Positions 6,736 through 21,959 are shown, numbered from the stretch's first letter. The stretch is DNA of 49,024 nucleotides from an uncultured Thermodesulfobacteriota bacterium (GCA_964459295.1 CAYWLT010000001.1:1-49024); one strand, 5' to 3'. The notes: generated by a model from the sequence alone, not told the origin. Translations and numbers: made by a program.

Positions 6736-8487
6736 TTATTTCAACAGTTGCAGCGCTAACTGCGGCAGCTGATTTGCCTGGGCCAGCATAGCCGTTGCAG
6801 CCTGTGTCAGGATGGAGTTTTTGGTAAAGACCGCCGTCTCTTCGGCAAAATCCACATCCCTGATGCGAGATTCGGATGCCGACAGGTTTTCCGCCGTGGT
6901 GGTCAGGTTCTGGATGGTCATGGTCACCCTTGATTGAATGGCGCCAAGGCCCGACCTGGTTCTACTAACCTGGTACATGGCGGCATCCAGGGTTGCCAGC
7001 GCATCATCAGCCCCGGCCTGGGTAGAGAGATCAATTAAGCTCACCGCATGGTCAAGTGAGGTGGTGTAGGTCTTTGCGGTTATGCTACCCAAATCGGCGT
7101 TTGAACCGGTGATGGTAAAGTTATCAGATGAATTAAGTTTTACCCCGCCCCGGTAGACATCCGTGCTGATGCCGGTGGCGGTTGCGGCCGCGGATCGCGC
7201 CACGACCGAAATGTTTCTTCCATCGGCGGCGTTGAGCACCAGCCGGTTCTGATTGTCCAGGCTCGCGCTCACCCCGGTGGTGGAGGCTTTGGCATTAATC
7301 GCGGCGAGCAGCGAACCACTGCTGTCACCATCCAGCACGGTTGTCGCACCGATCTCGATGCCATTAATATAGAGAGCGCCGGCCGCAAGGGTTCCGGCCG
7401 CGACTGCCGCCGAACCGGTCACCGTTGTGGCGACGGTCAAGGCATCCACCTTGGTAGATGATTTTATCGAATCGATAGCAGCCACTTTGGCAATCGCACT
7501 GGTCTCACCATTGTAAACGGTGTTTGCCGCACCATCGACAAAGTAGGCGGCCGATAAACCGGTTAAGGTGCTCAGGGAGGCGGCGGTCCGGCTCGAGTTG
7601 GTCAAGTCAAAGTTAATATTCTTTCCGGTATCAGCCGTCAAAACGATGCTATTACCGGATCCCGCCCGTGCGGTAACATGGGTTTTAGCAGCAGCGGAAT
7701 TTATCGCCCGGGTCAGGTCGGCGATCATGTCTGTCGCTATCGACCCAGCGCCGCCGTCGCCCAGGGTAACCGTGGCGATGGTTGCGCCGTTTATCACCAA
7801 TCCGCTAATCTCAACCCCGCTTGCGCCGGCTACATCGATCTCAGTCCCGACCAGGTCCAGAATCGACACCTGATCATCGGTCTCCTTGGTGGCGGCTACC
7901 AGCCGGTTGTTAATGGTAAATTCACCGACACTGAACCCTCCCTGGGTAGTTCCGCTGGCAAGGGTAGCGGCCGCCGTTGCCCTTTCACCCAGGGCGGCTG
8001 CCCTGATGTCACCGATGGAGAAACTGATGGTCTGGCCTTGATTAGCGCCGATCTGGATCTTGCCGGAGGTGAAGCTGCCGTTGAGCAGGGTATTGCCGAC
8101 AAATTCCGTGTCGTTGGCCACCCGGGTTAATTCGGCAATCAGCTGATTCGCTTCCGAGATCAGCAGGTCGCGGTTGGTGGTGTCGGTTGCGGCCTGTACC
8201 GCAAGGTCCCTTAAGCGCAGAATAATGTTGGTTGAAACATCCAGCGCGCCTTCCGCGGTCTGGGTCATGCTGATGGCGTCATTGGCATTTCTCGCCGCCT
8301 GATTCAATCCGCCGATTTGGCCCCTCAAATACACCGAGGTGGCCATGCCGGAGGCGTCATCCGCCGCCTTGTTAATGCGAAGGCCCGATGACAGACGCTC
8401 CAGCGACTTGTCCAGCTTCTCACTGATGTTGGTTAAGTGCCGCTGTGAATTTAATGCAGCTATATTGGTGTTGATTCTGAAACTCAT
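6736..8487 (-). CDS. fliC: Flagellin (583 aa from the second ATG)
   Basis: MSFRINTNIAALNSQRHLTNISEKLDKSLERLSSGLRINKAADDASGMA plus C-terminus TTAENLSASESRIRDVDFAEETAVFTKNSILTQAATAMLAQANQLPQLALQLL. AAGGAGG sits 8 nt before the ATG at 8487. The central domain is Ala/Thr/Ser/Gly-rich. Confidence 0.95.
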   Translation of the reverse strand: MSFRINTNIAALNSQRHLTNISEKLDKSLERLSSGLRINKAADDASGMATSVYLRGQIGGLNQAARNANDAISMTQTAEGALDVSTNIILRLRDLAVQAATDTTNRDLLISEANQLIAELTRVANDTEFVGNTLLNGSFTSGKIQIGANQGQTISFSIGDIRAAALGERATAAATLASGTTQGGFSVGEFTINNRLVAATKETDDQVSILDLVGTEIDVAGASGVEISGLVINGATIATVTLGDGGAGSIATDMIADLTRAINSAAAKTHVTARAGSGNSIVLTADTGKNINFDLTNSSRTAASLSTLTGLSAAYFVDGAANTVYNGETSAIAKVAAIDSIKSSTKVDALTVATTVTGSAAVAAGTLAAGALYINGIEIGATTVLDGDSSGSLLAAINAKASTTGVSASLDNQNRLVLNAADGRNISVVARSAAATATGISTDVYRGGVKLNSSDNFTITGSNADLGSITAKTYTTSLDHAVSLIDLSTQAGADDALATLDAAMYQVSRTRSGLGAIQSRVTMTIQNLTTTAENLSASESRIRDVDFAEETAVFTKNSILTQAATAMLAQANQLPQLALQLLK

Positions 8488-8740
8488 AGTCATTACCTCC
8501 TTGTAAGTGTGTTAGTGGTGGACGTCCATGTCCTTGGTGGTACTGTCGATGAAGCCATTTTTCGCAGAACGCTCTAGCCCGGCGCCAATAGTAGTTATTA
8601 TGCAACCGGGGCGGCTTCTGCCAGGTTTCGCTTCAAAACCTCTTCGTTCATCCCTCCTTTCATATCATCATTGTTGCTGCCCACAACCCTTCTATGTTGA
8701 CCACCTGCATTGTTCGTAGACCGCTTGAGTTGCTGTATGA

Positions 8741-8902: not shown

Positions 8903-8935
8903 AACCATTAAGTGAATGGACAGTTGGAAGCAACG

Positions 8936-9631
8936 ATGAAAAACAATGGGTTAAAATTCTTCAAGCATTCGCCCCTTTTCAACCGGCTGCTCATCCTCAG
9001 CGCACTTGAGAGGACTCCCCGGAGCAGCCAGAGCAGCCTGGCGAAGGAGGCCGGTTTAACTTCATCCATGGTAAACAATTACATCCGCGAACTTTCACAT
9101 GAACGGTTGATCCTGATTCAGGGAAATACCAATAGGACGATCAGTTATAATCTTACCGGTAAGGGTTTACAGGAAAAGATGTCTTTGCTTGTCGCCTATA
9201 TATTAGAAACTACCGGCCTCTACCAGACAGCCAAGTGGGAATTTACTCAAAGACTTAAGAAAATCTATGAAGAAGGAATTCGCCGTGTCGTTCTCTTCGG
9301 TGCCGGCGCAACCGCGGAGCTTCTCTACAATGCCCGAAAATCCCTCGATCTTAAAATCGTCGGGGTAGTTGATAACGATCCTAAAAAACAAGGTACGCTT
9401 TTCGGCAATCTGATCATACAGGGACCCGAATATATTGAGCGGGTTAATCCGGATGGAGTAATCATCGCCTCAATCGGAAGACAAGATGAAATCTACGCCC
9501 AGATACGCCATCTTGCGAAAAAAGGGATTTCCGTACGTACCATAAGCGCTTCATGCCATGACAGTCAGAAAAAGCAAGAGAGCAGGCCTGCACCACGGAT
9601 GTCCAGAGGTTGCATAAGGAGGCAGGCATAA
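8936..9631 (+). CDS. Winged-helix (MarR-like) regulator fused to a Rossmann-like NAD/CoA-binding domain
   Basis: N-terminus SQSSLAKEAGLTSSMVNNYIRELSHERLI is HTH-like. C-terminus RRVVLFGAGATAELLYNARKSLDLKIVGVVDNDPKKQG resembles the N-terminal domain of NeuD/PglB-type proteins, but without the LbH part. Confidence 0.55.
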   Translation: MKNNGLKFFKHSPLFNRLLILSALERTPRSSQSSLAKEAGLTSSMVNNYIRELSHERLILIQGNTNRTISYNLTGKGLQEKMSLLVAYILETTGLYQTAKWEFTQRLKKIYEEGIRRVVLFGAGATAELLYNARKSLDLKIVGVVDNDPKKQGTLFGNLIIQGPEYIERVNPDGVIIASIGRQDEIYAQIRHLAKKGISVRTISASCHDSQKKQESRPAPRMSRGCIRRQA

Positions 9632-9662
9632 GGCTGGTAATGACCCACCTTCGGATAACCGC

Positions 9663-10385
9663 ATGAACCGATCCACGATAGGAGATCAGAAGATACTCGC
9701 AGTCATACCGGCCCGGGGCGGATCCAAAGGGATTCCCCGGAAGAATATACAGATGCTTCTGGGCAGGCCTTTAATCGCCTACTCCATTATTGCCGCACTC
9801 CGGTCGCAAACCGTACAGCAAACAGTTGTTTCAACCGACGATGAGGTTATTGCGCGCATCGCGCGGCACTTTGGAGCGGAAGTTCCCTTTCTACGACCTC
9901 CCTGCCTGTCAACCGATACCGCCTCCACCACATCTGTTTTGCGGCACGCGGTACGGTTCCTGTCGGACAAAAAAGAAAAGCCGGATGATATTATCGTGTG
10001 TCTGCAGCCGACCAGTCCGCTGCGCTCAGCCAATGACATCGATCAGGCGGTGCTTTTATGTTTGCAGGCGGGGGCGGATTCCGTGGTTTCACTCTGTCCG
10101 GCGGAACATCACCCCTACTGGATGAAAAAAGTGATGGGGGACAGGGTGTATCCGCTGATGGAGGTGGATGATGAACAATATCCCCGAAGACAAGACCTGC
10201 CTCCGGCATATCAATTAAACGGGGCTATTTATGTCACCCGAAGAAAAATCCTCCTCGAGGAAGAGCGACTGCTGGGAGAGAACACCCTGGCTTACATCAT
10301 GCCCCGGGAGCGATCTATCGATATTGATACCCCCTTTGATTTAAAGCTGGCGGAACTGATCATGAAGGGAGAGGTCACCCCATGA
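9663..10385 (+). CDS. neuA: Acylneuraminate (nonulosonate) cytidylyltransferase, NeuA/LegF type
   Basis: ILAVIPARGGSKGIPRKNIQMLLGRPLIAYSI is the CMP-NeuAc synthetase family signature. The stop overlaps the next start (ATGA). Confidence 0.9.
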   Translation: MNRSTIGDQKILAVIPARGGSKGIPRKNIQMLLGRPLIAYSIIAALRSQTVQQTVVSTDDEVIARIARHFGAEVPFLRPPCLSTDTASTTSVLRHAVRFLSDKKEKPDDIIVCLQPTSPLRSANDIDQAVLLCLQAGADSVVSLCPAEHHPYWMKKVMGDRVYPLMEVDDEQYPRRQDLPPAYQLNGAIYVTRRKILLEEERLLGENTLAYIMPRERSIDIDTPFDLKLAELIMKGEVTP

Positions 10386-11422
10386 CCGCGATAAAAATCG
10401 GCCGCAGGAGAATCGGTGAAAATCACCCTGCTTTCATTATTGCCGAAGCGGGTGTCAATCACAATGGTGACACGAGTCTGGCCAGAAAGCTGGTGGATGA
10501 CGCGGTTGCGGCAGGGGTTGATGCGGTTAAGTTCCAGACCTTTGTCACGGAGGAGATAGTCACCCGTACGGCACAGAAGGCGGACTACCAGAAGAAAAAC
10601 ACGGGGAGCTCAGGTGAATCGCAGTTTGAAATGCTGAAAAAACTGGAGTTATCGTTCGGCGCGTTCCGGGAGTTGAAGCGATATTGCGCGTTCCGGGGGA
10701 TTTTGTTTCTTTCCACCCCCTTTGATCGCCGGAGCGCCGATTTTTTAGATGATTTGAAAATCTCCGCCTTCAAGATCGCTTCCGGGGAGTTAACCAACCG
10801 GTCCCTCCTCCGCCATGTCGCTCTAAAGCGAAAACCGATCATTCTGTCTACCGGTATGTCCACCCTGAAAGAAGTGGAAAATGCGGTTACGATACTGGGC
10901 GGGACGCAAAACCGGCAAATAATTCTTCTCCACTGCACCTCCGAGTATCCGGCGAGGGCGGAAAGTATTAATTTGAGGGGCATGCGCACCCTGCAGGATC
11001 GGTTCGGCGTTCCGGTAGGCCTCTCAGATCATTCCCGGGGAATAGAAATCGCGCTTGCCGCCGTTGCCCTGGGGGCGTGCGTAATCGAAAAGCACTTTAC
11101 CCTGGACAAGAAGTTGCCCGGCCCCGATCACCGCGCCTCCCTGGAGCCTCAAGAATTAAAGGCATTGGTGCGGGGCATCCGAAATATCGAAAAAGCGATG
11201 GGAAACGGGACAAAGGCTCCATCCGGAACCGAAAGGAAAATCAGCCGCATTGTGAGAAAGAGCATCGTTGCCGCGGTGGATATAAAGCAGGGAACGCCGT
11301 TCCGTGAAGACAACCTCACCACCAAAAGGCCGGGGCATGGTATCAGCCCCATGCGATGGAACGAGGTGATCGGCAAAACGGCGATGAGAGATTTTAAGGC
11401 GGATGAGCTGATAATAATTTGA
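10382..11422 (+). CDS. neuB: Nonulosonic acid synthase, NeuB/LegI type
   Basis: IGENHPAFIIAEAGVNHNGD...DAVKFQTF...HCTSEYPA...LSDHS, plus a C-terminal SAF/antifreeze-like domain. Confidence 0.9.
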   Translation: MTAIKIGRRRIGENHPAFIIAEAGVNHNGDTSLARKLVDDAVAAGVDAVKFQTFVTEEIVTRTAQKADYQKKNTGSSGESQFEMLKKLELSFGAFRELKRYCAFRGILFLSTPFDRRSADFLDDLKISAFKIASGELTNRSLLRHVALKRKPIILSTGMSTLKEVENAVTILGGTQNRQIILLHCTSEYPARAESINLRGMRTLQDRFGVPVGLSDHSRGIEIALAAVALGACVIEKHFTLDKKLPGPDHRASLEPQELKALVRGIRNIEKAMGNGTKAPSGTERKISRIVRKSIVAAVDIKQGTPFREDNLTTKRPGHGISPMRWNEVIGKTAMRDFKADELIII

Positions 11423-12603
11423 GAGTCGCCATGAAACGGAAAATTTGCATTGTGACCGGCAGCCGCGCCGAATACGGATTGATGCACTGCCTAATGCAGG
11501 AAATTAGAGAAGACCCCGATCTGGCATTACAGCTAATCGTTACCGGCATGCACCTTTCGCCGGAGTTTGGTTTAACCTACAAGGCGATTGAAGAAGACGG
11601 CTTTGTGATCAACGAAAAAGTGGAGATGCTGATGTCAGGGGACACCCCGAGCGCCATTGCCAAATCCATGGGGCTCGGCGTTATCGGCTTTGCCGATGCC
11701 CTGGCGCGGCTCGGACCTGATATCATGGTTGTGCTGGGTGACCGGTATGAAATCTTCGCCGCCTGCGCCGCCGCCCTGCCTGCCCGTATCCCGATTGCCC
11801 ACCTGCACGGCGGAGAAACTACCCAGGGGGTTATTGATGAAGCAATCCGCCACGCAATAACCAAGATGGCGCACCTTCATTTCACCGCCACGGAAACATA
11901 CAAAAAAAGGGTCATTCAAATGGGAGAGCACCCGACGCGGGTTTTCTGTTTCGGCGCGCCCGGCCTTGATGCCATCGGGCGGCTCAGGCTGCGTGAACGC
12001 AGGGCGTTTGAAAAATCAATTGGATTTGAACTGGGCGCGAAAAACATCCTGATTACCTTTCATCCGGTCACCCTGGAGGCAAAGGTATCCGGTCTGCATT
12101 TCGGAGAACTGTTAAAAGCTCTGAAAAGGCTTAATGACACAAAGCTCATTTTTACCAAACCCAACGCGGACACCGATGGCCGGATTATCATCACAATGAT
12201 CAATGATTTTGTGAAGGAAAACGGCGACAGGGCCATTGGGGTTGACTCCCTGGGCCGGCTTAATTACTTGAGCGCCCTCAAACATGTAGACATGCTGGTG
12301 GGCAATTCTTCCAGCGGCCTGACCGAAGCACCGTCTTTTAAAATACCCACGGTTGATATCGGAGACCGGCAGAAGGGCCGCGTCCGGGCCCAAACGGTTA
12401 TTCATTGCGAAGCCAAGAGAAAAGATATTCTGGCTGCCATCAACCGGGGGTTCTCAACAAAATTTCGCGATTCCATCAAGGACGCGGTGAACCCCTACGG
12501 CGGAGGAGGGGCGTCGCGCCGCATAAAAAACAAGCTAAAAAATATTGGCCTTGGAAAGAATCTGCTTCAGAAGGAATTCCAGGATATCGGCTGCACGCCA
12601 TGA
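11419..12603 (+). CDS. neuC: UDP/GDP-N-acetylglucosamine 2-epimerase (hydrolysing), NeuC/LegG type
   Basis: KICIVTGSRAEYGLMHCLMQEI...VLGDRYE...AHLHGGE...HPVT. Overlaps the neuB stop. Confidence 0.9.
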   Translation: MRVAMKRKICIVTGSRAEYGLMHCLMQEIREDPDLALQLIVTGMHLSPEFGLTYKAIEEDGFVINEKVEMLMSGDTPSAIAKSMGLGVIGFADALARLGPDIMVVLGDRYEIFAACAAALPARIPIAHLHGGETTQGVIDEAIRHAITKMAHLHFTATETYKKRVIQMGEHPTRVFCFGAPGLDAIGRLRLRERRAFEKSIGFELGAKNILITFHPVTLEAKVSGLHFGELLKALKRLNDTKLIFTKPNADTDGRIIITMINDFVKENGDRAIGVDSLGRLNYLSALKHVDMLVGNSSSGLTEAPSFKIPTVDIGDRQKGRVRAQTVIHCEAKRKDILAAINRGFSTKFRDSIKDAVNPYGGGGASRRIKNKLKNIGLGKNLLQKEFQDIGCTP

Positions 12604-12636
12604 AGGTTCGCCAATCATAGCCGGGGCAATAGCAGC

Positions 12637-13746
12637 ATGAGTATTATATCTGAGGTTAAAGATGTGATAGTGGATCAGCACACTTCTTTCGGGGAAACGC
12701 TTCGGCGGATGGACCGGCATCAGAGAAGTATCACGCTGATAGTGGATGAGCATAACCGGCTGTCCGGCATTTTAACCGATGGCGACATTCGCAAGGCCAT
12801 TCTCAGCGGCATAACACCGGAGGAGAGCGTGCAAAAGGCGATGAACCGCAATTATTTCTGTTTAAAGTCCGGGTATGCGGACGGAGAAATGATCAGAATT
12901 ATGAAGGAAAACGGCATCTACCATCTTCCCATCGTGGATGAGCACCGGCGGCTCATCGGCGTCGTTTTCCAACAAACCTTTATCCAGCAAAAGATCCTGC
13001 TCAGTCCCATCGTTATTATGGCGGGTGGATTGGGCAGCCGCCTCTTCCCTTTAACCCGGGATACACCTAAGCCTCTCCTGGAGGTTTCGGGAAAGCCGAT
13101 GATTATCCATATACTGGAAAAGTTTCGCGATGAGGGGGCAAGGGATTTTTTCATTTGCGTCAATTATAAAAGCACCATGATTGAGGAACACCTGGGAGAT
13201 GGAAGCGCCTACCGCATTAACATAAATTATATCAAGGAAACCGAAAAGCTCGGCACGGCAGGCGCGCTCTCGCTCCTGCCGGAAATGTCCGCCCCCTTTT
13301 TTGTGGCCAACGCGGACGTCATGACTTCCATTAACTTGAGAGCGATGTATCAGTTTCACATCGATAACGAGGCGGCGCTCACCATGGCGATTAAAAAAAA
13401 CCAAAAGAATGTTCCCTTTGGAACGGTTACCCTGGAACACAACCGAATCGTTGACCTGAGTGAAAAGCCTTCAATCGTGTACTATCTCAACGCGGGTATC
13501 TACATTATCGATCATCACTGTCTCAAGGAGATCCCGACAAACCGCCTATACCATATGACCGATTTTGTCACCCACCTGCTCTCCCGCAATGAGAAGATAA
13601 CCGGGTATCTGATTAACGGCCCGTGGACCGATATAGGACAATTCAAGGATTATCTTGAATGCAACTGGGAAAGAGCGTCCAGCGGACACTCCGCCGAAAG
13701 CATCGGAAATCTCTACCGGGATGCGGTCCGGATCCCCCATCCGTAA
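12637..13746 (+). CDS. CBS-pair + sugar-phosphate nucleotidyltransferase (PtmE-like architecture)
   Basis: N-terminal CBS text LIVDEHNRLSGILTDGDIRK...HLPIVDEHRRLIGVV, then IVIMAGGLGSRLFPLTRDTPKPLL (G-x-G-t-R-l nucleotidyltransferase motif). Confidence 0.8.
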   Translation: MSIISEVKDVIVDQHTSFGETLRRMDRHQRSITLIVDEHNRLSGILTDGDIRKAILSGITPEESVQKAMNRNYFCLKSGYADGEMIRIMKENGIYHLPIVDEHRRLIGVVFQQTFIQQKILLSPIVIMAGGLGSRLFPLTRDTPKPLLEVSGKPMIIHILEKFRDEGARDFFICVNYKSTMIEEHLGDGSAYRININYIKETEKLGTAGALSLLPEMSAPFFVANADVMTSINLRAMYQFHIDNEAALTMAIKKNQKNVPFGTVTLEHNRIVDLSEKPSIVYYLNAGIYIIDHHCLKEIPTNRLYHMTDFVTHLLSRNEKITGYLINGPWTDIGQFKDYLECNWERASSGHSAESIGNLYRDAVRIPHP

Positions 13747-13772
13747 ATTGTTACAGTGCAGCCTAAGGAAAG

Positions 13773-14770
13773 ATGATCTCTATGGACTGGAAAAATAAAA
13801 CCATACTGGTGACCGGGGCGGAAGGATTTATCGGAAGCCATTTAACCGAAAGCCTGGTTGCCCGGGGAGCCCGGGTCAAGGCGCTGGCCATGTACAATGC
13901 CTTTAACAAGTGGGGTGGATCGACCGCTTTAAGCGTAATGATATGAATGGCCTCAGCGTTCTCTGCGGCGACATTCGGGAAGCTGATTTCTTGAAAGTTG
14001 CGCTCAAAGGGGTTGATATGGTTTTTCATCTGGCCGCGCTTATTTCCATTCCCTACTCGTATGTATCACCCTCTTCCTACATCAAGACCAATATCGAAGG
14101 GACACTCGCTCTTTTACAGGCATCGCAGGAGTGTGAGGTTGAAAAAATCATTCATACCTCATCCAGCGAGGTGTATGGAACCGCCCGGTATGTTCCCATC
14201 GACGAGCAGCATCCCCTCCAGGGCCAGTCTCCCTATGCGGCGAGCAAAATCGGCGCGGATATGATTGTGGAAAGTTTTTATCGTTCTTTTAATCTGCCGG
14301 TGATCACGGTTCGTCCCTTTAATACCTACGGCCCCCGGCAGTCTGCCAGGGCTATCATCCCCACCCTGATTGTTCAGATGCTCACCCGGAATACAATTAA
14401 GCTCGGGTCCCTGCACCCGGTAAGGGATTTCACCTACGTTTCGGATACAGTGCAGGGTTTTATCGCTGCGGCGGAGGCCGAGGGGATATACGGGGAAGTA
14501 ATCAACCTCGGCACCACCCGCGGCATATCAATCGGCGACCTGGCCGACAAACTGATGAAGATGATGGGAAAGACAGTGGAAATCGAATGTGAGCAGGAGA
14601 GGACCAGGCCGGCACGCAGCGAGGTCAACCGGCTTATCTGTGACAATCAAAAGGCGGGCGGGTTAATTGGCTGGCGCCCGGCGGTGCATCTGGACGAAGG
14701 TTTGGAGAAAACCATAAACTGGTTTAAGGAAAATCTGGAAGAATACAAGGGTGATGCATACGCCATTTGA
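13773..14770 (+). pseudogene. NAD-dependent sugar 4,6-dehydratase/epimerase (LegB-like SDR) with the reading frame broken at ~13911-13916
   Basis: The frame from the ATG at 13773 gives MISMDWKNKTILVTGAEGFIGSHL...YNAFNKWGG.. and stops at 13944-13946. A second frame (ORF track 13910-14770) continues GWIDRF...HLAAL...SPYAASK... So the Rossmann GxxGxxG and the catalytic YxxxK are in different frames. One extra G in TGGGGTGG would restore N-K-W-G-W-I-D. Confidence 0.75.
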
Positions 14771-14795
14771 TAATGCATAAGGACGGGGAGAGCGT

Positions 14796-17489
14796 ATGAG
14801 CTATTTTGAACAAAACCTGAAAGCCCTGGAGAAATGGCACCCCGAGATAGCCCGGCTGATGCGACGGGAGATAGATACGCGCCATATCGAGGTGTGTGTC
14901 TCAAAGGCCGGCATTGCCACCGCCAGGGTTACAACCCCCATCGGGGAGAGGGTCATGGTACATGATGAATTTGATCCGGCGGCAAAGGCTGAAGGGCACG
15001 TAAAAAAGCTTGATCTGTCCGGCACCAGCGGTTCGGTTCTTCTCGGCTTCGGGCTTGGGTATCTGGCTCGGGAAATAGTGAAAGCCATGGAAACCGGACA
15101 CCTGCTCATTATCTGTGAAGCCGATCCCGCACTGTTCAGGGTGGCCTTAGAACACTGTGATCTGGCACGGGTGTTTGAAACATCGAGCGTAAAACTGTTG
15201 CTGGGAAAAGACATTGATATAGCGCCGCACATTTTTAGTCTCACGATGAAATATCTCACCGCCAAAATATCGGTGATTAGCTTTCATCCATCCCTGGTTA
15301 TCGATCCCGAGGTATACCAGAACCTGTATCAAAAGGCGCAGGAAGCGGCCCTGCTGATTAAGGTAAAAGCCAATACCGTCCTCTACGGAGGCAGGGAAAT
15401 GGCGGGGAATATACTCGCCAATACCATGGAAATCATTCGATCCGCCGGCATTAGAAGATTGTTTAATAAGTTCAGGGGTATTCCCGCAATCATCGTAGGA
15501 GCCGGTCCTTCGCTGGAGAAAAATGTGGCGTTTTTAAAAGAGGTTAAGGAAAAAGCGATACTGATCGCGGCAGACCGAACCTTGGGACTGCTCTTACCTT
15601 TAGGCATAACCCCCCACCTGGTGCCGTCGATCGATTACAGCAAAGTCAACTATGACGAAAAATATGCATCGCTTCACATGAGCGATAAACTTTACATGGT
15701 CTTTTCTCAAACCCTTCATCACAATATTACCAGGAAGTTTTGGGGAGAAAAGTTTGTCCTGGGTACCCAGGATACCCTGGGCACTATGCTCAGTTATTAT
15801 TGGGGTGACAAGGGATATGTCCCCACCGGGCTGCACGTGGGTCATTTAGCATTTTGTTTGGCCGGCGCCATGGGCTGCAATCCCATTATACTCACCGGTA
15901 TGGACCTGGCCTTTTCCGGAGACAAGGTCCATGCCGGGGATATTGAAACGAAGGAGCACTATGTAGCGTCTGACCGGTTTGCCAGTGAAGGCATCTTCGG
16001 AGAGCGATTAAAATCGGATGCGCCTTTCAGAAGTTTTGTCTTTGATTTAAACAGGGCTATACGCGAGTCAAACGCACTGTGCATCGATGCCAGCGAGGGG
16101 GGGGCAAAAAAAGAGGGCGCCAGGATAATGCGTTTAAGAGATGCGGTTAGCGAATACTGCAAAGTCGACCATCCGGAAATAAGAAGTATTCTTGAAGAGG
16201 AGAGCCAAAAATTTGATGATTCGCTATATGATGAGTTGCAAAAAGATTTAATCTTTGTTGAAAAAGAGTCCAAAAGCATGAAACGGGCTTCCCGGGCAAT
16301 ACTAAGAATTATTGGAAAATTCCGGGCAATGAAGGCGGCGGGCAGGCAAACAAGCTCGGAATATATCAAGCTCACCAGGAAAGCCGAGATGTTGACCCGC
16401 CAGGCCGAGGGAAGAGGGCGGATCTGGAATATGTTGATGAATTACAACTTTGCCAATGTGCTTTTTATGGGAAGGGAGGAGATAAAAAAAATAGATTTAA
16501 TCGATGATCCGTATGAAAAACTGGAGGGCCAGTTGGATCGGGCGGCAACCTACTACAAAAACTTTCTCGATGCCCTTACCCCCTTCATTGACGACATTCA
16601 AAAACTCACAAAGAGACTTGCGCGGGAATGCACGGCAAAAGCTACTTTCGAAAAATCAGCGAAAACCTGGAGAGACTATCTCAGCTACGGCACGGATCTC
16701 TTTAAAGCGGAAATATACCGTGAGGCTGAAGCCGCCTTCAAGCAGGCCATCGAGTTAAATCCCGACCATAGTGAGGCCTGCTACTATTTAGGCAGGATTT
16801 ATCACGAACAGAATAGATTTAAGGCCGCCGCCTCCATATTAGAAAAGGCCATCGCGCTTGGAAGTGATGTAACCGATGCGAAAGATCTTCTCGATGCCTG
16901 TAACGAGAGGAACCGGCAATGGGATTCCCGCTGCCGGAAATTAAGGGAAAAATTCTACCGCCAGGCATTGCAAGGGCGTTATGAAAAGGCGGCTATTTTG
17001 GAAGGAGGGAATTTCTATTTTCGGGTTAAGGACTACGAACGGGCGAAGCAGGAGTATTTGTCGGTGATTGACCGCCATCCCGCACTGCCTGAGGCGCACT
17101 ACCACCTGGGACATACCTATTTTGCCATGCAAGATTTTGAAAAAGGCGTGGAGTCTTTGAGTAAAGCAATGGAGCTTGAACCGGACAACCCGGCGATATA
17201 TCGCGACCTGGGGCTGGTTTCAATCAAGCGGGGCCTGGTTGGGTCGGCTGAAAGATTTCTGCTGAAAGCGATCGAGCTGAAGCCGGACGACCTGGAACTG
17301 CATGAGATCCTGGGAAACCTCTACTTCAATAATGATCAGTATGAAAAGGCGGTTGAAATATACGAGCGGATTCTCGCAATCAAGCCGGATCACCACGAGT
17401 CGGCAAACAACCTGGGCAGGGCCTACCGTAAATTGATCGATGATAGCCTGCACGCGCCAGGCCGGACTCAAACCCAGTCACTACCGTAA
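14796..17489 (+). CDS. maf: Motility-associated factor (Maf, DUF115/MptE-like) flagellin glycosyltransferase with a C-terminal TPR array
   Basis: N-terminus FEQNLKALEKWHPEIARLM and core IPAIIVGAGPSLEKN...LIAADRTL...PSIDY are typical of Maf proteins. The last ~270 aa contain repeated TPR-like A..Y..AIEL.PD / Y.LG..Y units. Confidence 0.8.
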   Translation: MSYFEQNLKALEKWHPEIARLMRREIDTRHIEVCVSKAGIATARVTTPIGERVMVHDEFDPAAKAEGHVKKLDLSGTSGSVLLGFGLGYLAREIVKAMETGHLLIICEADPALFRVALEHCDLARVFETSSVKLLLGKDIDIAPHIFSLTMKYLTAKISVISFHPSLVIDPEVYQNLYQKAQEAALLIKVKANTVLYGGREMAGNILANTMEIIRSAGIRRLFNKFRGIPAIIVGAGPSLEKNVAFLKEVKEKAILIAADRTLGLLLPLGITPHLVPSIDYSKVNYDEKYASLHMSDKLYMVFSQTLHHNITRKFWGEKFVLGTQDTLGTMLSYYWGDKGYVPTGLHVGHLAFCLAGAMGCNPIILTGMDLAFSGDKVHAGDIETKEHYVASDRFASEGIFGERLKSDAPFRSFVFDLNRAIRESNALCIDASEGGAKKEGARIMRLRDAVSEYCKVDHPEIRSILEEESQKFDDSLYDELQKDLIFVEKESKSMKRASRAILRIIGKFRAMKAAGRQTSSEYIKLTRKAEMLTRQAEGRGRIWNMLMNYNFANVLFMGREEIKKIDLIDDPYEKLEGQLDRAATYYKNFLDALTPFIDDIQKLTKRLARECTAKATFEKSAKTWRDYLSYGTDLFKAEIYREAEAAFKQAIELNPDHSEACYYLGRIYHEQNRFKAAASILEKAIALGSDVTDAKDLLDACNERNRQWDSRCRKLREKFYRQALQGRYEKAAILEGGNFYFRVKDYERAKQEYLSVIDRHPALPEAHYHLGHTYFAMQDFEKGVESLSKAMELEPDNPAIYRDLGLVSIKRGLVGSAERFLLKAIELKPDDLELHEILGNLYFNNDQYEKAVEIYERILAIKPDHHESANNLGRAYRKLIDDSLHAPGRTQTQSLP
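16097..16104 (+). repeat. G8 homopolymer (followed by C then A7, 16106-16112) inside the maf coding sequence
   Basis: Read directly: gcgaGGGGGGGGcAAAAAAAgag, encoding E-G-G-A-K-K-E. Confidence 0.95.
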
Positions 17490-17536
17490 TAAATACCGCA
17501 ACCGAAACAGCCGGTTATTCTCAGGGGGTCTCGCAC

Positions 17537-18958
17537 ATGACATTAAAAGGAAGGGTGCTATTTATTATTCATGATTTATATCAGGAAGACAATCACTTGC
17601 CGCTCGGTCCGGCCTATCTGGGCGCGGTTTTAAAAAAACAGGGTGTAACGGTTGAAGCGTATTGCCAGGACCTTTTTCACCACAGCAATCAGGCGCTGGC
17701 CGCCCATTTAGCCAGGAACACCTACGATCTCATCGGCGTAGGATTTCTAGCGGCCCGCTTTACCGAGACCGTCATCGACCTCTGCGCGACCATTAAGCGG
17801 CATAACCGCGGCTGGTTAATCCTGGGCGGACACGGCCCCACTCCTATCCCGGAATACATGCTGAAAAAAACCGGCGCCGATGTGGTGATAATGGGGGAAG
17901 CCGAAGAAACCATTATAGACCTATTACGATGCAGAATTGATGGAGGAGACCTTTCGGCGATAAAGGGAATCGCGTTCCGGAACGGTGCGGAAATCACGAT
18001 TAATGAAAGGCGACCGCCGATTAAGAGTTTGGATTCCATTCCCTTTCCGGAGTGGTCTTTATTCCCCATGGAAAAGTACACTAACTGCTTGAGTCTCTTC
18101 AGACAAGAGAAAGGAGACAGAGCCGTGGGTATACTGACCAGCCGGGGCTGCGTAAACCGGTGTGCGTTCTGCTACCGGATGGAAAATGGCATTCGGTTCA
18201 GGTCGGTTGAAAATGTGGTTGAAGAAATGAAGGTTCTGAACAAAACCTACGGGGTTAACTACTTCCACCCCCAGGATGAACTTTTTATTGCCAGTAAAAA
18301 GAGGGCTTTTGAGCTGCATCGTCAGTTAAAGAAAAACAAGCTTACCATAAAATTCGCGTGTAATGCGCGGGTCGATATCTTTGACCAAGAGCTGGCATCC
18401 TGTTTAAAAGAATGCGGATGCCAGTTTCTCAATTTCGGCATGGAGTCTTCCGACCAAAACGTGCTGAACCTGATGAACAAAGGAACCTCCGTAGCCCAGA
18501 ATATAAAAGCGGCGGAAATAACAAGAAAGGCGGGAATCGGGCTTGGTTTAAATTTCATCTGGGGCAATATCGGCGATACGGAAGAATCGCTTAAAAATAA
18601 CGTAAGGCTGATTAAAGAATATACCACCTATGATCAGCTCAGAACCATTCGGCCGGTTACCCCCTATCCCGGATGCGACTTGTATTATGAGGCAATCCGC
18701 CGGGGGCTTTTAGCCGGACCTGAGGACTTCTTCAATAAATTTAAAAACTCTGATCTTCGGTTGGTTAATTTTACCGAGATACCGGAAGGAGAGTTCTACC
18801 AGCTGCTCTTTGAAGCCAATAAAGAACTCATCCGAGACCACTACTGGCACACCACTCGGAACATGGACCAGGCGCAAGCGCTGATTAATGACTTTAAGGG
18901 TCTATATTTTGGGAATAAAATTAAATTTAGAGGGGCCCGACACTACCAGGCCGCCTGA
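17537..18958 (+). CDS. B12-binding-domain radical SAM enzyme
   Basis: N-terminal cobalamin-binding-like Rossmann text (YDLIGVGFLAARF...VIMGEAEE), then the radical SAM cluster motif SRGCVNRCAFCY. Confidence 0.85.
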   Translation: MTLKGRVLFIIHDLYQEDNHLPLGPAYLGAVLKKQGVTVEAYCQDLFHHSNQALAAHLARNTYDLIGVGFLAARFTETVIDLCATIKRHNRGWLILGGHGPTPIPEYMLKKTGADVVIMGEAEETIIDLLRCRIDGGDLSAIKGIAFRNGAEITINERRPPIKSLDSIPFPEWSLFPMEKYTNCLSLFRQEKGDRAVGILTSRGCVNRCAFCYRMENGIRFRSVENVVEEMKVLNKTYGVNYFHPQDELFIASKKRAFELHRQLKKNKLTIKFACNARVDIFDQELASCLKECGCQFLNFGMESSDQNVLNLMNKGTSVAQNIKAAEITRKAGIGLGLNFIWGNIGDTEESLKNNVRLIKEYTTYDQLRTIRPVTPYPGCDLYYEAIRRGLLAGPEDFFNKFKNSDLRLVNFTEIPEGEFYQLLFEANKELIRDHYWHTTRNMDQAQALINDFKGLYFGNKIKFRGARHYQAA

Positions 18959-18966
18959 CCCGGCTT

Positions 18967-19014
18967 CCGGCGGGCGGTTGAAAAAGCGCCGGTCTGCGGT
19001 TTAAGCCATAGGGC
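18967..19014 (+). repeat. Dispersed intergenic repeat, copy 1 (diverged)
   Basis: CCGGCGGGCGGTTGAAAAAGCGCCGGTCTGCGGTTTAAGCCATAGGGC. It shares GCGGTTGAAAAA, TCTG and a GGG tail with the family consensus. Confidence 0.6.
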
Positions 19015-19061
19015 ACCGGGTCGTTCCGTAAGCTGCCAAATACATTGTTGTGGCTACAAAG

Positions 19062-19114
19062 CCCCCCCCCTTGAGCCACGAATCAGATGGGTTTTTTTCA
19101 ACCGCCGGCTCCGC
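19062..19114 (-). repeat. Dispersed intergenic repeat, copy 2 (includes a C9 tract at 19062-19070)
   Basis: The plus strand reads CCCCCCCCCTTGAGCCACGAATCAGATGGGTTTTTTTCAACCGCCGGCTCCGCC. It is nearly identical to the copy at 33964-34010. Confidence 0.85.
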
Positions 19115-19120
19115 CACGGA

Positions 19121-20122
19121 ATGAATATGCTGATTGAGTACGAAAAGGCATTAGCGGTATTTAATCGGTTTCAAGAAAACCAGAAAATCCCGTATCTTCA
19201 TCCGTACTATGTGGCGGCTGATGCCCAACGCGATGGAGGATTGACCCCGGGATTTTTTGTATACGAGGAAGAAAAGTCGGTTTTTTATCACCCCTTTCAT
19301 ATTGCGCCGGTAGCGGGAACTGGGTTCTTCGACATACAATCCGCCTACGGTTACGGAGGCCCCCTGGCAAACAGTAAGGAGGCGGGATTTCTGACCAGAG
19401 CATGGTCTGCCCACTGTGCCTGGTGTAAGCAACAAAATGTTCTGGCGGAATTTATTCGTTTTCATCCTCTGCTCCACAACTGGTGTTATTATCACGGCGA
19501 GGTGGTGGAGGAGCGCGAGACCGTGTGGGTAAATCTTTGCACCAACCATGTGTCGTCCGCCTATCGGGAGCTCGCCAGAAGAGGTGTGAGAAAAGCAAAA
19601 AAGAACGGGTTGACCGTTGAGTGGTGGAGCGGTGATCAGTTTATCAAGATATTTCCCCTTTTGTACGATATCTTCATGACCGAATTGAACGCGGATACTT
19701 TTTATCATTTTAGCAATGAATATTTTGCAGGAATCCTATCATGGGAAAAGGCACTTTGTGCAGTATGTAAACGGGGAGATGAGGTGGTGTCCGCGGGAGT
19801 CTTTTTGGCGGATGCCGACGCCATGGAATATCATCTCTCAGCTTCAAGTCCCGCCGCAAGAGAGCTCGGTTCAGTCTATTTGCTGATGGATGAAGCCGCC
19901 CGGCGCGGCCAGCAGCTTGCCTGCCGGACTTTACATCTGGGGGGCGGTACTGATAACCGTTCCGATAACCCACTGCTTTTCTTCAAATCAAGATTTTCCG
20001 ATTTGCGCGCCTCCTTCCGGATCGGGAAAAAGATCTATTTTTCAGAGGACTACGATCAAATGAAACGCAGATGGCAGGAAAAACAAGGTGTTGCCGCACA
20101 TCGGGTGCTCTTTTATCGATAA
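19121..20122 (+). CDS. FemAB-like / GNAT-fold acyl(aminoacyl)transferase candidate
   Basis: 333-aa ORF. FDIQSAYGYGGPL...AEFIRFHPLL...MEYHLSAS resembles the Acetyltransf_6/FemAB-type proteins seen in polysaccharide loci. Assigned by motif recollection only. Confidence 0.55.
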   Translation: MNMLIEYEKALAVFNRFQENQKIPYLHPYYVAADAQRDGGLTPGFFVYEEEKSVFYHPFHIAPVAGTGFFDIQSAYGYGGPLANSKEAGFLTRAWSAHCAWCKQQNVLAEFIRFHPLLHNWCYYHGEVVEERETVWVNLCTNHVSSAYRELARRGVRKAKKNGLTVEWWSGDQFIKIFPLLYDIFMTELNADTFYHFSNEYFAGILSWEKALCAVCKRGDEVVSAGVFLADADAMEYHLSASSPAARELGSVYLLMDEAARRGQQLACRTLHLGGGTDNRSDNPLLFFKSRFSDLRASFRIGKKIYFSEDYDQMKRRWQEKQGVAAHRVLFYR

Positions 20123-20139
20123 GCTGGAGGAGGCAGGGA

Positions 20140-20817
20140 ATGACTTGGGATCCGGTATGGGAAGAAGTTTTTAAAACACAGGCCTGGGGCAAATACCCGA
20201 CGGTTGATCTTATCCGTTTTGTCGCACGCAATTTTTACCGGTCAAAAGATCGTCAAGGCATAAAATTACTGGAAGTCGGCTGCGGGCCGGGCGCAAATTT
20301 ATGGTATATGGCGCGTGAAGGATTTACTGTCTACGGGATGGATGCCTCTAAAACGGCGATTGCCCGGGCGGAGGAACGTCTGCACCGGGAGTGTCCCGGA
20401 TGGTGTGGCAAACTTAGCACCGGAGATATAAGTGTTCTCCCTTTTCATGACGAATTCTTTGACGCGGTTATCGATATTGAGGCGATTTCCTGCAATTCCT
20501 ATGATAACGCAAAAACTATTTACGGTGAACTGGCGCGGGTGGCGAAGAAAGGCGGTAAATTGTTTTCCCAGACATTTGCAACCGGCTGCTGGGGTGACCG
20601 CACCGGTAGAAAAGTCGGTCACCGGGCGTGGATCGTATCGGAAGGTCCCCTGCTGGATAAGGGGTATGTGCGTTTTACCGACCGGAGCGAACTGGAAGAC
20701 CTCACCGGTGGATTTACACTTCATGAAGCGGAGCTTCTGACCCGAACCATGAACGGCATGCGCCATGAAATAAAGGAATGGATTATCATTGGTGAAAAAA
20801 AGCCGGAGCCCGCATGA
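20140..20817 (+). CDS. Class I SAM-dependent methyltransferase
   Basis: LLEVGCGPGANLWYMAREGFTVYGMDAS is motif I (E/DxGxGxG). GGAGGAGG RBS before the ATG at 20140. The ORF-track start at 20071 overlaps the previous gene. Confidence 0.85.
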   Translation: MTWDPVWEEVFKTQAWGKYPTVDLIRFVARNFYRSKDRQGIKLLEVGCGPGANLWYMAREGFTVYGMDASKTAIARAEERLHRECPGWCGKLSTGDISVLPFHDEFFDAVIDIEAISCNSYDNAKTIYGELARVAKKGGKLFSQTFATGCWGDRTGRKVGHRAWIVSEGPLLDKGYVRFTDRSELEDLTGGFTLHEAELLTRTMNGMRHEIKEWIIIGEKKPEPA

Positions 20818-21959
20818 TACCCCTGAGCGCACCCTCCCTCAAAGGAAATGAATGGAAGTATGTAAAAGAATGCCTTGACACCGAGTGGGTTTCATCTGTC
20901 GGGAAATACGTCGATGCCTTCGAAAAAAACATGGCCGACTACCTTGGTGCAAAATATGCGGTAGCATGCATGAACGGCACCTCAGCTCTACATGTGTCAT
21001 TGCTCCTCGCAGAGGTAAAACCTTCGGAAGAGGTCATTGTCCCTACGGTAAGCTTTATCGCGCCGGTTAACGCAGTAAAATATGTAGGTGCTGAACCGCT
21101 TTTTATGGATTGCGATGGATATTGCAATATAGACGTGAACAAAACCAAAGAATTTATCAAGACCGGCTGTCACGTGATTAACGGCAATTTAATTAATAAT
21201 ACCACGGGAAAAAGAATAGCGGCTATAATCCCGGTGCATATCTTTGGAACCCCGGTGGACATGGACCCTTTAAGGGAATTGGCGGATAGCTATAAGATAA
21301 AAATTATTGAAGATGCAACCGAATCACTGGGAGCTGAGTATAAGGGAAAGAAAACCGGGACCCTGGGCCTGCTGGGTTGCTTAAGTTTTAACGGTAATAA
21401 GATTATTACCACCGGCGGGGGAGGAATGATCATTACCAATGATGAGCGCCTGGCAAAAAAGGCAAAATACTTGATTACCCAGGCAAAGGAAGAAGGAACG
21501 GAATATGTCCATGGAGAAATTGGTTTTAACTACCGGATGGTTAACGTGCTCGCCGCAATCGGCATGGGTCAGCTTGAAATGATAGACGATTATATGGCGA
21601 TAAAAAGAAAAAATTTCCTTCGCTACCGGGAACTGCTGTCTGACCAGCGCTACAGCTTGTTGGACGAACCGGTCTATGCTAAGTCGAACCGCTGGCTCTA
21701 CGCGGTCAGGTGCCACGATAAAAGAGAAAAAGAATTTTTACTCCGCTATCTCAATAGCGACGGTATCGAAGCCCGCCCGTTATGGCATCTGAACCACCTG
21801 CAAAAGCCCTACCTCAAGTGCCAGTCATATAAAATTGAGCAGGCGCCGAGAATGCATGACATCATAGCAAACATTCCCTCTTCCGTGAATTTGACAGAGA
21901 CCCAGATCAGAGAAGTGGTGCAAGCGATGAAAAAAGCCGGCACGGCCAGTGGGGTCTAA
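20814..21959 (+). CDS. DegT/DnrJ/EryC1/StrS-family PLP aminotransferase (LegC/PglE-like)
   Basis: IPLSAPSLKGNEWKYVKECLDTEWVSSVGKYVDAFE...MNGTSALH...SFNGNKIITTGGGGMI (PLP lysine context). Confidence 0.9.
   Translation: MIPLSAPSLKGNEWKYVKECLDTEWVSSVGKYVDAFEKNMADYLGAKYAVACMNGTSALHVSLLLAEVKPSEEVIVPTVSFIAPVNAVKYVGAEPLFMDCDGYCNIDVNKTKEFIKTGCHVINGNLINNTTGKRIAAIIPVHIFGTPVDMDPLRELADSYKIKIIEDATESLGAEYKGKKTGTLGLLGCLSFNGNKIITTGGGGMIITNDERLAKKAKYLITQAKEEGTEYVHGEIGFNYRMVNVLAAIGMGQLEMIDDYMAIKRKNFLRYRELLSDQRYSLLDEPVYAKSNRWLYAVRCHDKREKEFLLRYLNSDGIEARPLWHLNHLQKPYLKCQSYKIEQAPRMHDIIANIPSSVNLTETQIREVVQAMKKAGTASGV

Follow-up and report, generated by a model that had tools for sequence, protein, structure and literature searches.

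Two candidate tailoring modules, a FemX-like transferase/methyltransferase pair and a cobalamin-type radical SAM protein, in a flagellar legionaminic acid island of an uncultured Thermodesulfobacteriota bacterium

The stretch of DNA analyzed here (the window, 49,024 nucleotides in full) is contig 1 of a 2.94-Mb metagenome-assembled genome of an uncultured Thermodesulfobacteriota bacterium (GCA_964459295.1, CAYWLT010000001.1:1-49024). Its plus strand carries an operon (8912-21959) that encodes, in order, a winged helix-turn-helix (wHTH) protein, a cytidine monophosphate (CMP)-nonulosonate synthetase, NeuB, NeuC, a PtmE-like protein, LegB, a Maf protein with TPRs, a B12-binding radical S-adenosylmethionine (SAM) protein, a FemX-like protein, a class I SAM methyltransferase, and LegC; genes for flagellin and FliD flank it on one side, and genes for FliW, CsrA, FlgL and FlgK on the other. 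An earlier sequence-only reading had proposed that the radical SAM, FemX-like and methyltransferase genes together specify a new decoration of a flagellar nonulosonic acid. They are indeed three consecutive, intact plus-strand open reading frames (ORFs) beside maf (17537-18958, 473 aa; 19121-20122, 333 aa; and 20140-20817, 225 aa), all full length relative to their homologs, and they fall outside the textbook enzyme sets for legionaminic (Leg), pseudaminic (Pse) and neuraminic (Neu) acids. The three genes are, however, two modules rather than one: the radical SAM gene forms the first, and the FemX-like and methyltransferase genes the second.

The genes around them make up a Leg cluster, with LegB, LegC, LegG (NeuC), LegI (NeuB), LegF and a nucleotidyltransferase that forms a guanosine diphosphate (GDP)-sugar all together. 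The LegF-like CMP-nonulosonate synthetase (9663-10385) matches Pfam CTP_transf_3 (93 bits) and falls below the cut-off for PseF (TIGR03584, 183 bits against 205.7); the nonulosonate synthase NeuB/LegI (10382-11422; TIGR03569, 485.7 bits, cut-off 399.65) and the hydrolysing 2-epimerase NeuC/LegG (11419-12603; TIGR03568, 478 bits, cut-off 235.9) are well above theirs. The PtmE-like GDP-sugar maker (12637-13746) combines Pfam CBS and NTP_transferase domains, and the DegT-type aminotransferase LegC, maker of the C4 amine, lies at 20814-21959 (Pfam DegT_DnrJ_EryC1, 313 bits). The 4,6-dehydratase gene legB (13782-14770; TIGR04180, 396 bits for the 3' part) carries a frameshift in this assembly: the reading frame shifts at a short G-run near 13913-13916, such that its first 45 aa, including the GxxGxxG nicotinamide adenine dinucleotide (NAD) motif, lie in one frame (as seen by tblastn) and the remainder, in another, forms the ORF 13910-14770. 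In the related loci L142, L143 and L145, legB is intact (329 aa). All these genes are on the plus strand, as is that of the Maf flagellin nonulosonate glycosyltransferase (14796-17489, 897 aa; Pfam MptE-like PF01973, 135.8 bits; Maf_flag10_N, 29.8 bits; C-terminal TPRs), an MptE-like Maf gene that stands beside nonulosonate genes and the minus-strand gene of the presumed glycan acceptor, flagellin (6736-8493; Pfam Flagellin_N/IN/C). The window thus shares with the CMP-Leg pathway of Campylobacter jejuni (PtmE, LegB, LegC, LegH, LegG, LegI, LegF and Maf) a PtmE-like protein, LegB, LegC, NeuC/LegG, NeuB/LegI, a LegF-like protein, Maf and the flagellin neighborhood. It differs from that pathway in having no LegH in the island or the genome, and in having a FemX-fold transferase, a methyltransferase and a B12 radical SAM protein.

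The protein of the first module matches Pfam Radical_SAM above the curated cut-off (E 8e-18, 65.5 bits) and carries an N-terminal Rossmann domain of the B12-binding family (PF02310, E 5e-12, 46.1 bits, cut-off 32.1); the cysteines of its CxxxCxxC cluster motif (C205, C209 and C212) are invariant in 26 homologs. These 26 aligned relatives, taken from the best database matches and 62-87% identical to the window's protein, have a mean column identity of 77%, and distant copies in other phyla are still 52-68% identical. Hosts include Saccharibacteria and other bacteria of the candidate phyla radiation, Woesearchaeota, Pacearchaeota and Nanoarchaeota (DPANN), Methanoregula and Methanosarcinales, Asgard archaea, Omnitrophota, Planctomycetota and deltaproteobacterial lineages.

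All loci compared in this study were fetched via conserved peptide patterns and viewed to +/-10 kb only, and related genomes among them are non-independent samples. Within 10 kb of the radical SAM gene in 58 loci (at least 37% identity and at least 8 kb of sequence), NeuB is encoded in 46 and a CMP-nonulosonate synthetase in 48 (adjacent in 10), while LegH is encoded in 8, and the amidotransferase WbuX with HisH/HisF-like proteins in 22. This acetamidino module, of the type known from Legionella and Escherichia coli O145, is the commonest neighboring module of the radical SAM family elsewhere. A role specific to it was considered for the radical SAM protein and rejected, as WbuX was not found in the window's genome and 36 of the 58 loci lack it. 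Because the radical SAM protein is conserved across differing N7 and N5 decorations and tied to NeuB and the CMP-synthetase, it probably acts on the sugar core shared by these compounds or on the N5-acetyl group. It perhaps does so at the CMP-sugar stage; Fom3 offers an analogy, as an enzyme that acts on a cytidylylated substrate.

For the reaction itself, C-methylation is our best guess, at about even chances. The AlphaFold (AF2) model (predicted local distance difference test, pLDDT, 86) matches TsrM, MgmA, OxsB, CysS and TokK (Foldseek E 1e-22 to 1e-14). With the methylases TsrM, MgmA, TokK and CysS, and with OxsB and AprD4, it shares the N-terminal B12-type Rossmann domain and the CxxxCxxC radical SAM barrel; it differs from them in sequence (at most 21% identity), and no characterized member has a nonulosonate neighborhood. 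A search of PDB sequences and of NCBIfam gave no close characterized relative. It counts against a methylase that the best template modelling (TM) score belongs to AprD4 (0.73/0.76), a 1,2-diol dehydratase with no methylase activity, which is also the best PDB sequence match, and that the top NCBIfam scores are those of BchE and HpnJ (sub-threshold), neither of them a methylase. The protein might instead catalyze an AprD4-like dehydration, an OxsB- or HpnJ-like rearrangement, or an epimerization on the sugar, and the short-chain dehydrogenase/reductase (SDR) genes that adjoin it in some loci (for example, L088 and L006) would suit such chemistry. We regard this as rather unlikely, however: the B12-binding domain is above the Pfam cut-off, methylases make up four of the six structurally closest families, no partner reductase is encoded in the window, and Leg has no vicinal diol for a reaction of the AprD4 type.

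Some radical SAM loci (L088:4417-13734 and L144:581-6308) represent another ulosonate cassette, composed of a HAD-SIS protein, a short NeuB, a xylose-isomerase-like TIM protein and a CMP-transferase, together with a class III aminotransferase, a glyoxalase, a methyltransferase and two SDRs. Nonulosonate clusters with two to three paralogous B12-binding radical SAM genes, often adjoined by ABC exporters, were seen at L005, L008, L009, L012, L013, L081 and L147. SPASM-type radical SAM genes also occur in some nonulosonate clusters (L144); a Campylobacter phasome paper deals with SPASM-type radical SAM genes only. Our literature search returned no paper that links a radical SAM enzyme, or a Fem-like/FemAB enzyme, with legionaminic, pseudaminic or nonulosonic acids.

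The second module begins with a candidate aminoacyl-transfer RNA (tRNA)-dependent N-acyltransferase of the tandem-GNAT FemX fold. An AF2 model built from 25 homologs (pLDDT 93) shows two GNAT-like domains arranged as in FemX, and its best PDB neighbors are, in order, Weissella FemX (TM-score 0.72-0.75, Foldseek E 4e-15), Sbb17/Sba18, FemA and the MprF synthase domain, all of them aminoacyl-tRNA-dependent transferases; tandem GNATs that depend on coenzyme A (CoA) rank far below, with TM-scores of about 0.4-0.5. At the sequence level, the family profile reaches FemX at E 1.8e-9 and also reaches Sbb17, while among CoA-dependent GNATs it gave a single marginal match, the IAA acetyltransferase 1y9k (E 0.25). 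In the profile alignment, the invariant Tyr237 aligns with Tyr254 of FemX, and an FFK motif (F288/K289) aligns with VFK of FemX; Tyr254 and the Phe-Lys positions are functionally important in FemX, as the titles of PDB mutant entries also suggest. The protein is therefore FemX-like in fold and, judging from the model, probably in mechanism.

It shares with FemX of Weissella viridescens (the uridine diphosphate (UDP)-MurNAc-pentapeptide:L-alanine transferase) a tandem-GNAT fold that lacks the coiled coil of FemA, with an alignable C-terminal domain, and its acceptor would, as in FemX, be an amine on a nucleotide-linked precursor; it differs in lying in a nonulosonate operon instead of a cell-wall context, and in sequence. 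Sbb17 and Sba18, from streptothricin-type pathways, have the Fem-like fold and were crystallized with streptothrisamine (PDB 9wqw-9wqy), and so illustrate the use of Fem-like enzymes outside peptidoglycan; they belong to a natural-product pathway and resemble the window's protein weakly in sequence (E 4e-4).

Its partner is a class I SAM methyltransferase with a Rossmann-like domain (Pfam Methyltransf_11, 62 bits) and a motif I, EVGCGPG, in which G47, G49 and G51 are invariant. The ORF extends from 20071 or 20140 to 20817; the likely start is the ATG at 20140, behind GGAGGAGG, which gives the 225 aa of its orthologs, and its TGA overlaps the ATG of legC (ATGA, 20814-20817).

The FemX-like and methyltransferase genes recur together as a conserved pair in Leg operons across many phyla. 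An alignment-based scan of one genome per GTDB species found 51 FemX-like loci (a scan with a single-protein pattern gave none), and 31 of them carry orthologs of the methyltransferase (41-74% identity), mostly immediately downstream of the FemX-like gene. Of these loci, 34 reach an identity of 34% or more and span 8 kb or more; in this FemX-like-anchored set, NeuB is encoded in 31, NeuC in 32, PtmE in 30, LegB, LegC and LegF in 28 each, and the methyltransferase in 25; in 25 of the 34 the FemX-like gene directly adjoins that of NeuB. The reciprocal scan, anchored on the methyltransferase, gave 80 loci, 68 of them with at least 8 kb, and these contain the FemX-like gene in 60 (adjacent in 41) and NeuB in 56. 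A recurrent order is LegB-LegC-NeuC-(358-369-aa protein)-NeuB-FemX-like-methyltransferase-PtmE-LegF. The sequence-only reading had asked whether homologs of the trio stay with maf and neuB or belong to unrelated pathways: they are strongly co-conserved with neuB and Leg genes, and the inspection of neighborhoods revealed no general linkage to unrelated pathways. The association with maf was borne out only in part, since many homologs belong to polysaccharide clusters that are not flagellar or to organisms that lack flagella. FemX-like homologs occur in flagellar islands of Brevibacillus, Paenibacillus, Cohnella, Metabacillus and Kurthia, flanked by flagellin, Maf, FliW and FliD genes, and also in polysaccharide loci with Wzz and Wzx (Geomesophilobacter). 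Further FemX-like hosts are found in Acidobacteriota, Burkholderiales, Pseudoalteromonas and Syntrophomonas, and the methyltransferase scan added the cultured hosts Shewanella xiamenensis, Lysinibacillus, Kurthia gibsonii, Nostoc, Variovorax and Ca. Ferrigenium.

The 358-369-aa protein of the recurrent order lies between NeuC and NeuB in some 17-19 FemX-like-type Leg clusters (for example, L023:7817-8926, L147:6108-7184 and L018:6081-7187), and is 48% identical between Brevibacillus and a Firmicute-like contig. One copy has no Pfam match at E 1e-4, and another matches the C-terminal part of DegT_DnrJ_EryC1 above the cut-off (E 1e-7, 32 bits); it may be another step of the pathway variant. In two Shewanella loci a tRNA-Arg(CCT) gene sits inside the Maf/Leg region (L181:7242-7317 and L182:7244-7319). 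These are the sole tRNA genes in 60 related loci; the other 58, and the window, have no dedicated tRNA gene, which is neutral for the idea of a tRNA donor.

In canonical Leg clusters, a hexapeptide acetyltransferase of the PglD/NeuD type sits between LegC and NeuB; using as tblastn queries two bona fide left-handed beta-helix (LbH) LegH proteins, from Leg clusters found via the radical SAM gene, we detected LegH in none of the 68 methyltransferase-anchored loci and in one of the 34 FemX-like-anchored loci, the exception (L036) having a second, separate Leg module. Of the seven full Leg clusters without a FemX-like gene in the radical-SAM-anchored set, six have LegH and the seventh has a formyltransferase. 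Over all Leg clusters, 61 have the FemX-like gene without LegH, six have LegH without the FemX-like gene, one has both and one has neither, a tally that is descriptive only, as some contigs are counted twice and relatives are non-independent. The island has no LbH (hexapeptide) protein following a PglD_N domain anywhere, and there is no match above cut-off to the NeuD/PglD family (TIGR03570) in the window's whole genome or in the genomes of Brevibacillus fortis, B. porteri and Shewanella xiamenensis; two other carrier genomes have such a protein far from the Leg cluster. The FemX-like protein is not a LegH, though it may do the job of one. As the pair takes the place of an absent LegH, N7 would be the position that carries the decoration, a point that the sequence-only reading had overlooked.

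Close relatives of the window show what appears to be an exchange at this step. The order Maf-radical SAM-FemX-like-methyltransferase-LegC is common to the window, L142, L145, L146 and L015, and in L142 and L145 the radical SAM protein is 87% and the FemX-like protein 75% identical to those of the window. By contrast, in L143 the radical SAM gene (79% identical) runs straight into legC, the FemX-like and methyltransferase genes being absent, and a formyltransferase, a PIG-L deacetylase and a PglD-type LegH are encoded between NeuC and PtmE (L143:1648-3867), where the window has nothing; the gene content of this cassette suggests a formylated Leg variant, made by de-N-acetylation and then N-formylation. 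From these two gene orders we conclude that a single scaffold has swapped one N-acyl cassette for another. The left junction of the FemX-like/methyltransferase cassette that L143 lacks is, in the window, a repeat-derived spacer of 162 bp (18959-19120) with a C9-10 tract and an inverted repeat, GGCGGTTGAAAAA...TTTTTTCAACCGCC. This spacer could be the scar of a mobile repeat or a phase-variable element; no terminator-like site was found on the plus strand between the radical SAM and FemX-like genes, regional matches being not above shuffled expectation.

Taking these observations together, we propose that the island makes a CMP-activated legionaminic acid derivative, which Maf would transfer to flagellin. 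LegC would place a 4-amino group on the GDP-sugar, the nitrogen of which becomes N7 of Leg. The FemX-like protein would acylate this amine, most likely with an amino acid from an aminoacyl-tRNA, much as FemX acts on a lysine amine of a UDP-linked precursor; the partner methyltransferase would then methylate the new residue, most simply at its free alpha-amine, to give Leg5Ac7(N-methyl-aminoacyl). The radical SAM protein would alter the sugar core or the N5-acetyl group, whatever the N-acyl decoration. What the data show directly are the domain and fold assignments, the order of the genes, the co-occurrence counts, the lack of LegH and the naturally occurring variants of the cassette; acceptor, donor, site of methylation and radical reaction are inferred from these. 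The C4 amine is a rather probable acceptor, because it needs acylation and the FemX-like protein is the only conserved candidate for the task. For the donor, the FemX-like fold of the model tips us slightly toward aminoacyl-tRNA. N-methylation of the new residue is possible, at a little under even chances; a methyltransferase partner is easiest to understand if acylation brings in a new free amine.

The flagellar sugar is probably an undescribed legionaminic acid derivative, and an aminoacylated and/or methylated form of Leg is the best reading of the gene content. That the pair replaces LegH in building the CMP-activated derivative that Maf adds to flagellin, with the radical SAM protein as a separate tailoring enzyme, seems to us evenly poised between right and wrong. 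More tentatively still, and with some doubt, we suggest a large branch of Leg biosynthesis that would draw charged tRNA from translation and use aminoacyl-tRNA instead of acetyl-CoA at the LegH step, yielding N7-(N-methyl-aminoacyl) sugars, together with an independent cobalamin radical SAM enzyme that would perform the first radical carbon-level tailoring of sialic-acid-like sugars. Leg clusters with the pair are seen in Bacillota, Pseudomonadota, Acidobacteriota, cyanobacteria and others.

Several observations weigh against this proposal. The FemX-like protein reaches only 19.9 bits with the Pfam FemAB model (PF02388; cut-off 24), so that by the curated model it ranks as a distant relative of FemABX and not as a member; its identity to FemX is only about 14%, and the public name of its homologs, GNAT N-acetyltransferase, makes an acyl-CoA donor conceivable. 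No NCBIfam family covers it. The methyltransferase has generic NCBIfam matches only and lacks an informative close relative, so that either N- or O-methylation is conceivable. In some clusters the 358-369-aa protein or a small GNAT, neither of which is present in the window, lies beside the pair and could share the LegH role. Finally, the legB frameshift means that the pathway may be inactive here, unless it is an assembly error.

Some of these points suit a simpler scheme, in which the FemX-like protein is a non-orthologous LegH that uses acetyl-CoA, or another acyl-CoA or acyl carrier protein, to give Leg5Ac7Ac or a simple acyl variant, and the methyltransferase acts elsewhere, for example as a sugar O-methylase. 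The Pfam match that does exceed its cut-off is to Acetyltransf_6 (27.7 bits, cut-off 22), in keeping with the public name 'GNAT family N-acetyltransferase'; there is a G-K-x-L-G-A stretch (in the consensus) where GNATs bind the CoA pyrophosphate; the two Shewanella loci aside, no tRNA or synthetase genes were seen in the clusters; and the complementarity with LegH fits this scheme equally well. Yet the top structural neighbors are all aminoacyl-tRNA-dependent, with the CoA-dependent tandem GNATs far behind; the family profile reaches FemX and Sbb17 and CoA-dependent GNATs only marginally; the FemX Tyr and Phe-Lys positions are invariant; and a new, methylatable free alpha-amine would account better for the close association with a methyltransferase. 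We therefore judge an acetyl-CoA-type LegH unlikely.

Amino acids with N-methyl groups on flagellin have precedents. The flagellar glycan of Clostridium botulinum, Leg5GluNMe7Ac, joins an amino acid and an N-methyl group on a flagellin sugar (10.1101/2020.06.03.131540), and the type A glycan of Clostridioides difficile is N-acetylglucosamine-phospho-N-methyl-threonine on flagellin (PMC4441256). In C. botulinum, the amino acid is on N5 and described as glutam-4-yl, which we read as a side-chain linkage that would not fit a tRNA-dependent transferase. Neither source assigns the glycan enzymes to the FemX-like family.

The division into two modules bears on a further alternative, closest to the original suggestion, in which all three genes build one side chain: the FemX-like protein adds an amino acid, and the radical SAM protein C-methylates and the class I methyltransferase N-methylates that same residue. 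The three genes stand side by side in the window, as they do in L015, L142, L145 and L146, and radical SAM genes of the same family occur in FemX-like/methyltransferase clusters of other phyla (L026, L147, L196, L214, L218 and L224). In a maximum-likelihood tree the radical SAM family forms two clades, and copies beside FemX-like/methyltransferase genes appear at no fewer than four independent places (the window's clade, L196, L147/L026, L218/L224 and L214). The combination of the radical SAM gene with the pair thus recurs, yet it is a minority context: the 58 radical-SAM-anchored loci, which are of nonulosonate type, hold the FemX-like gene in none and the methyltransferase in one, and just five of the 68 methyltransferase-anchored loci hold the radical SAM gene. 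L143 keeps the radical SAM gene without the pair. Conversely, a genome of the same family as the window's (G004) has lost it by what is a natural deletion: at L237 (G004:C54, 8445-8726), between Maf and LegC and beside FliW, it is cut to a C-terminal remnant, a 51-aa ORF that matches residues ~386-473. Its retention in L143 and its remnant in G004 mark the radical SAM gene as an optional, separate decoration step. Moreover, an identity of 60-68% across amidino, LegH and FemX-like contexts argues for a shared feature of the substrate and not the variable N7 acyl group. A single side chain built by all three enzymes is on these grounds distinctly improbable. That the genes contribute nothing to the flagellar glycan, being passengers or remnants in decay, as the legB frameshift, the repeat-filled spacer with its homopolymer tract before the FemX-like gene and the failure to find the island in same-genus genomes might suggest, is highly improbable, given that the three ORFs are intact and full length, that their order is kept in four related contigs at 65-87% identity with legB intact, and that overlapping stop and start codons tie the methyltransferase to legC.

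Among relatives, the island is an accessory element of variable occurrence, a pattern typical of flagellar glycosylation islands. In 40 related genomes we found no close ortholog of either protein searched, with only two distant matches at 29% and 32% identity, and three genomes of the same genus (G001-G003, one of them 98% complete) lack matches for NeuB, the Maf domain and FlgK. Either the flagellum is variably present in the genus or contig 1 is mis-binned; the operon reading is unaffected by this. The same-family genomes G004 and G009 do have flagellar genes (FlgK 62% identical). G004 has Maf, the radical SAM remnant and LegC beside FliW on a contig that ends within maf, and G009 has no island in the 6.6 kb beside FliW.

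The Leg pathway with Maf is already known; what is new here is the proposed replacement of the LegH step by a FemX-like/methyltransferase pair, with a widespread, uncharacterized radical SAM protein as a further, proposed tailoring enzyme. Motility, recognition by phages and the immune system, and surface charge are shaped by the nonulosonic acids of flagella, S-layers and capsules. These sugars owe their diversity mainly to N-acyl groups, for which few of the responsible enzymes have been identified. The two families have clear genomic signatures and are testable: the pair is present in cultured, tractable bacteria (Brevibacillus, Paenibacillus, Kurthia, Shewanella xiamenensis and Pseudoalteromonas), and the radical SAM gene is found together with those of NeuB and the CMP-synthetase across many uncultured bacteria and archaea. 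Should the pair be tRNA-dependent, it would constitute a new link between translation and glycan synthesis and a route to amino-acid-bearing sialic acid analogues, with glyco-engineering by promiscuous Maf transferases. If both readings are true, they would add new enzyme chemistries for this class of sugars and imply undescribed nonulosonates on many cell surfaces. The findings also correct the annotation of proteins now named 'GNAT N-acetyltransferase', 'YgiQ' or 'BchE'.

The first gene of the operon (8912-9631, plus strand, 239 aa) encodes a wHTH domain (Pfam HTH_24) joined to a Rossmann domain resembling the N-terminal part of NeuD/PglD (NCBIfam NeuD_NnaD over residues 2-89 only, 26 bits against a cut-off of 160.8). 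It was considered as a cryptic LegH and rejected, the hexapeptide (LbH) domain and with it the acetyltransferase part being missing. The gene is kept at the same place in L142 and L145; its product is probably a regulator, and may be one that senses a sugar nucleotide and thereby controls the island.

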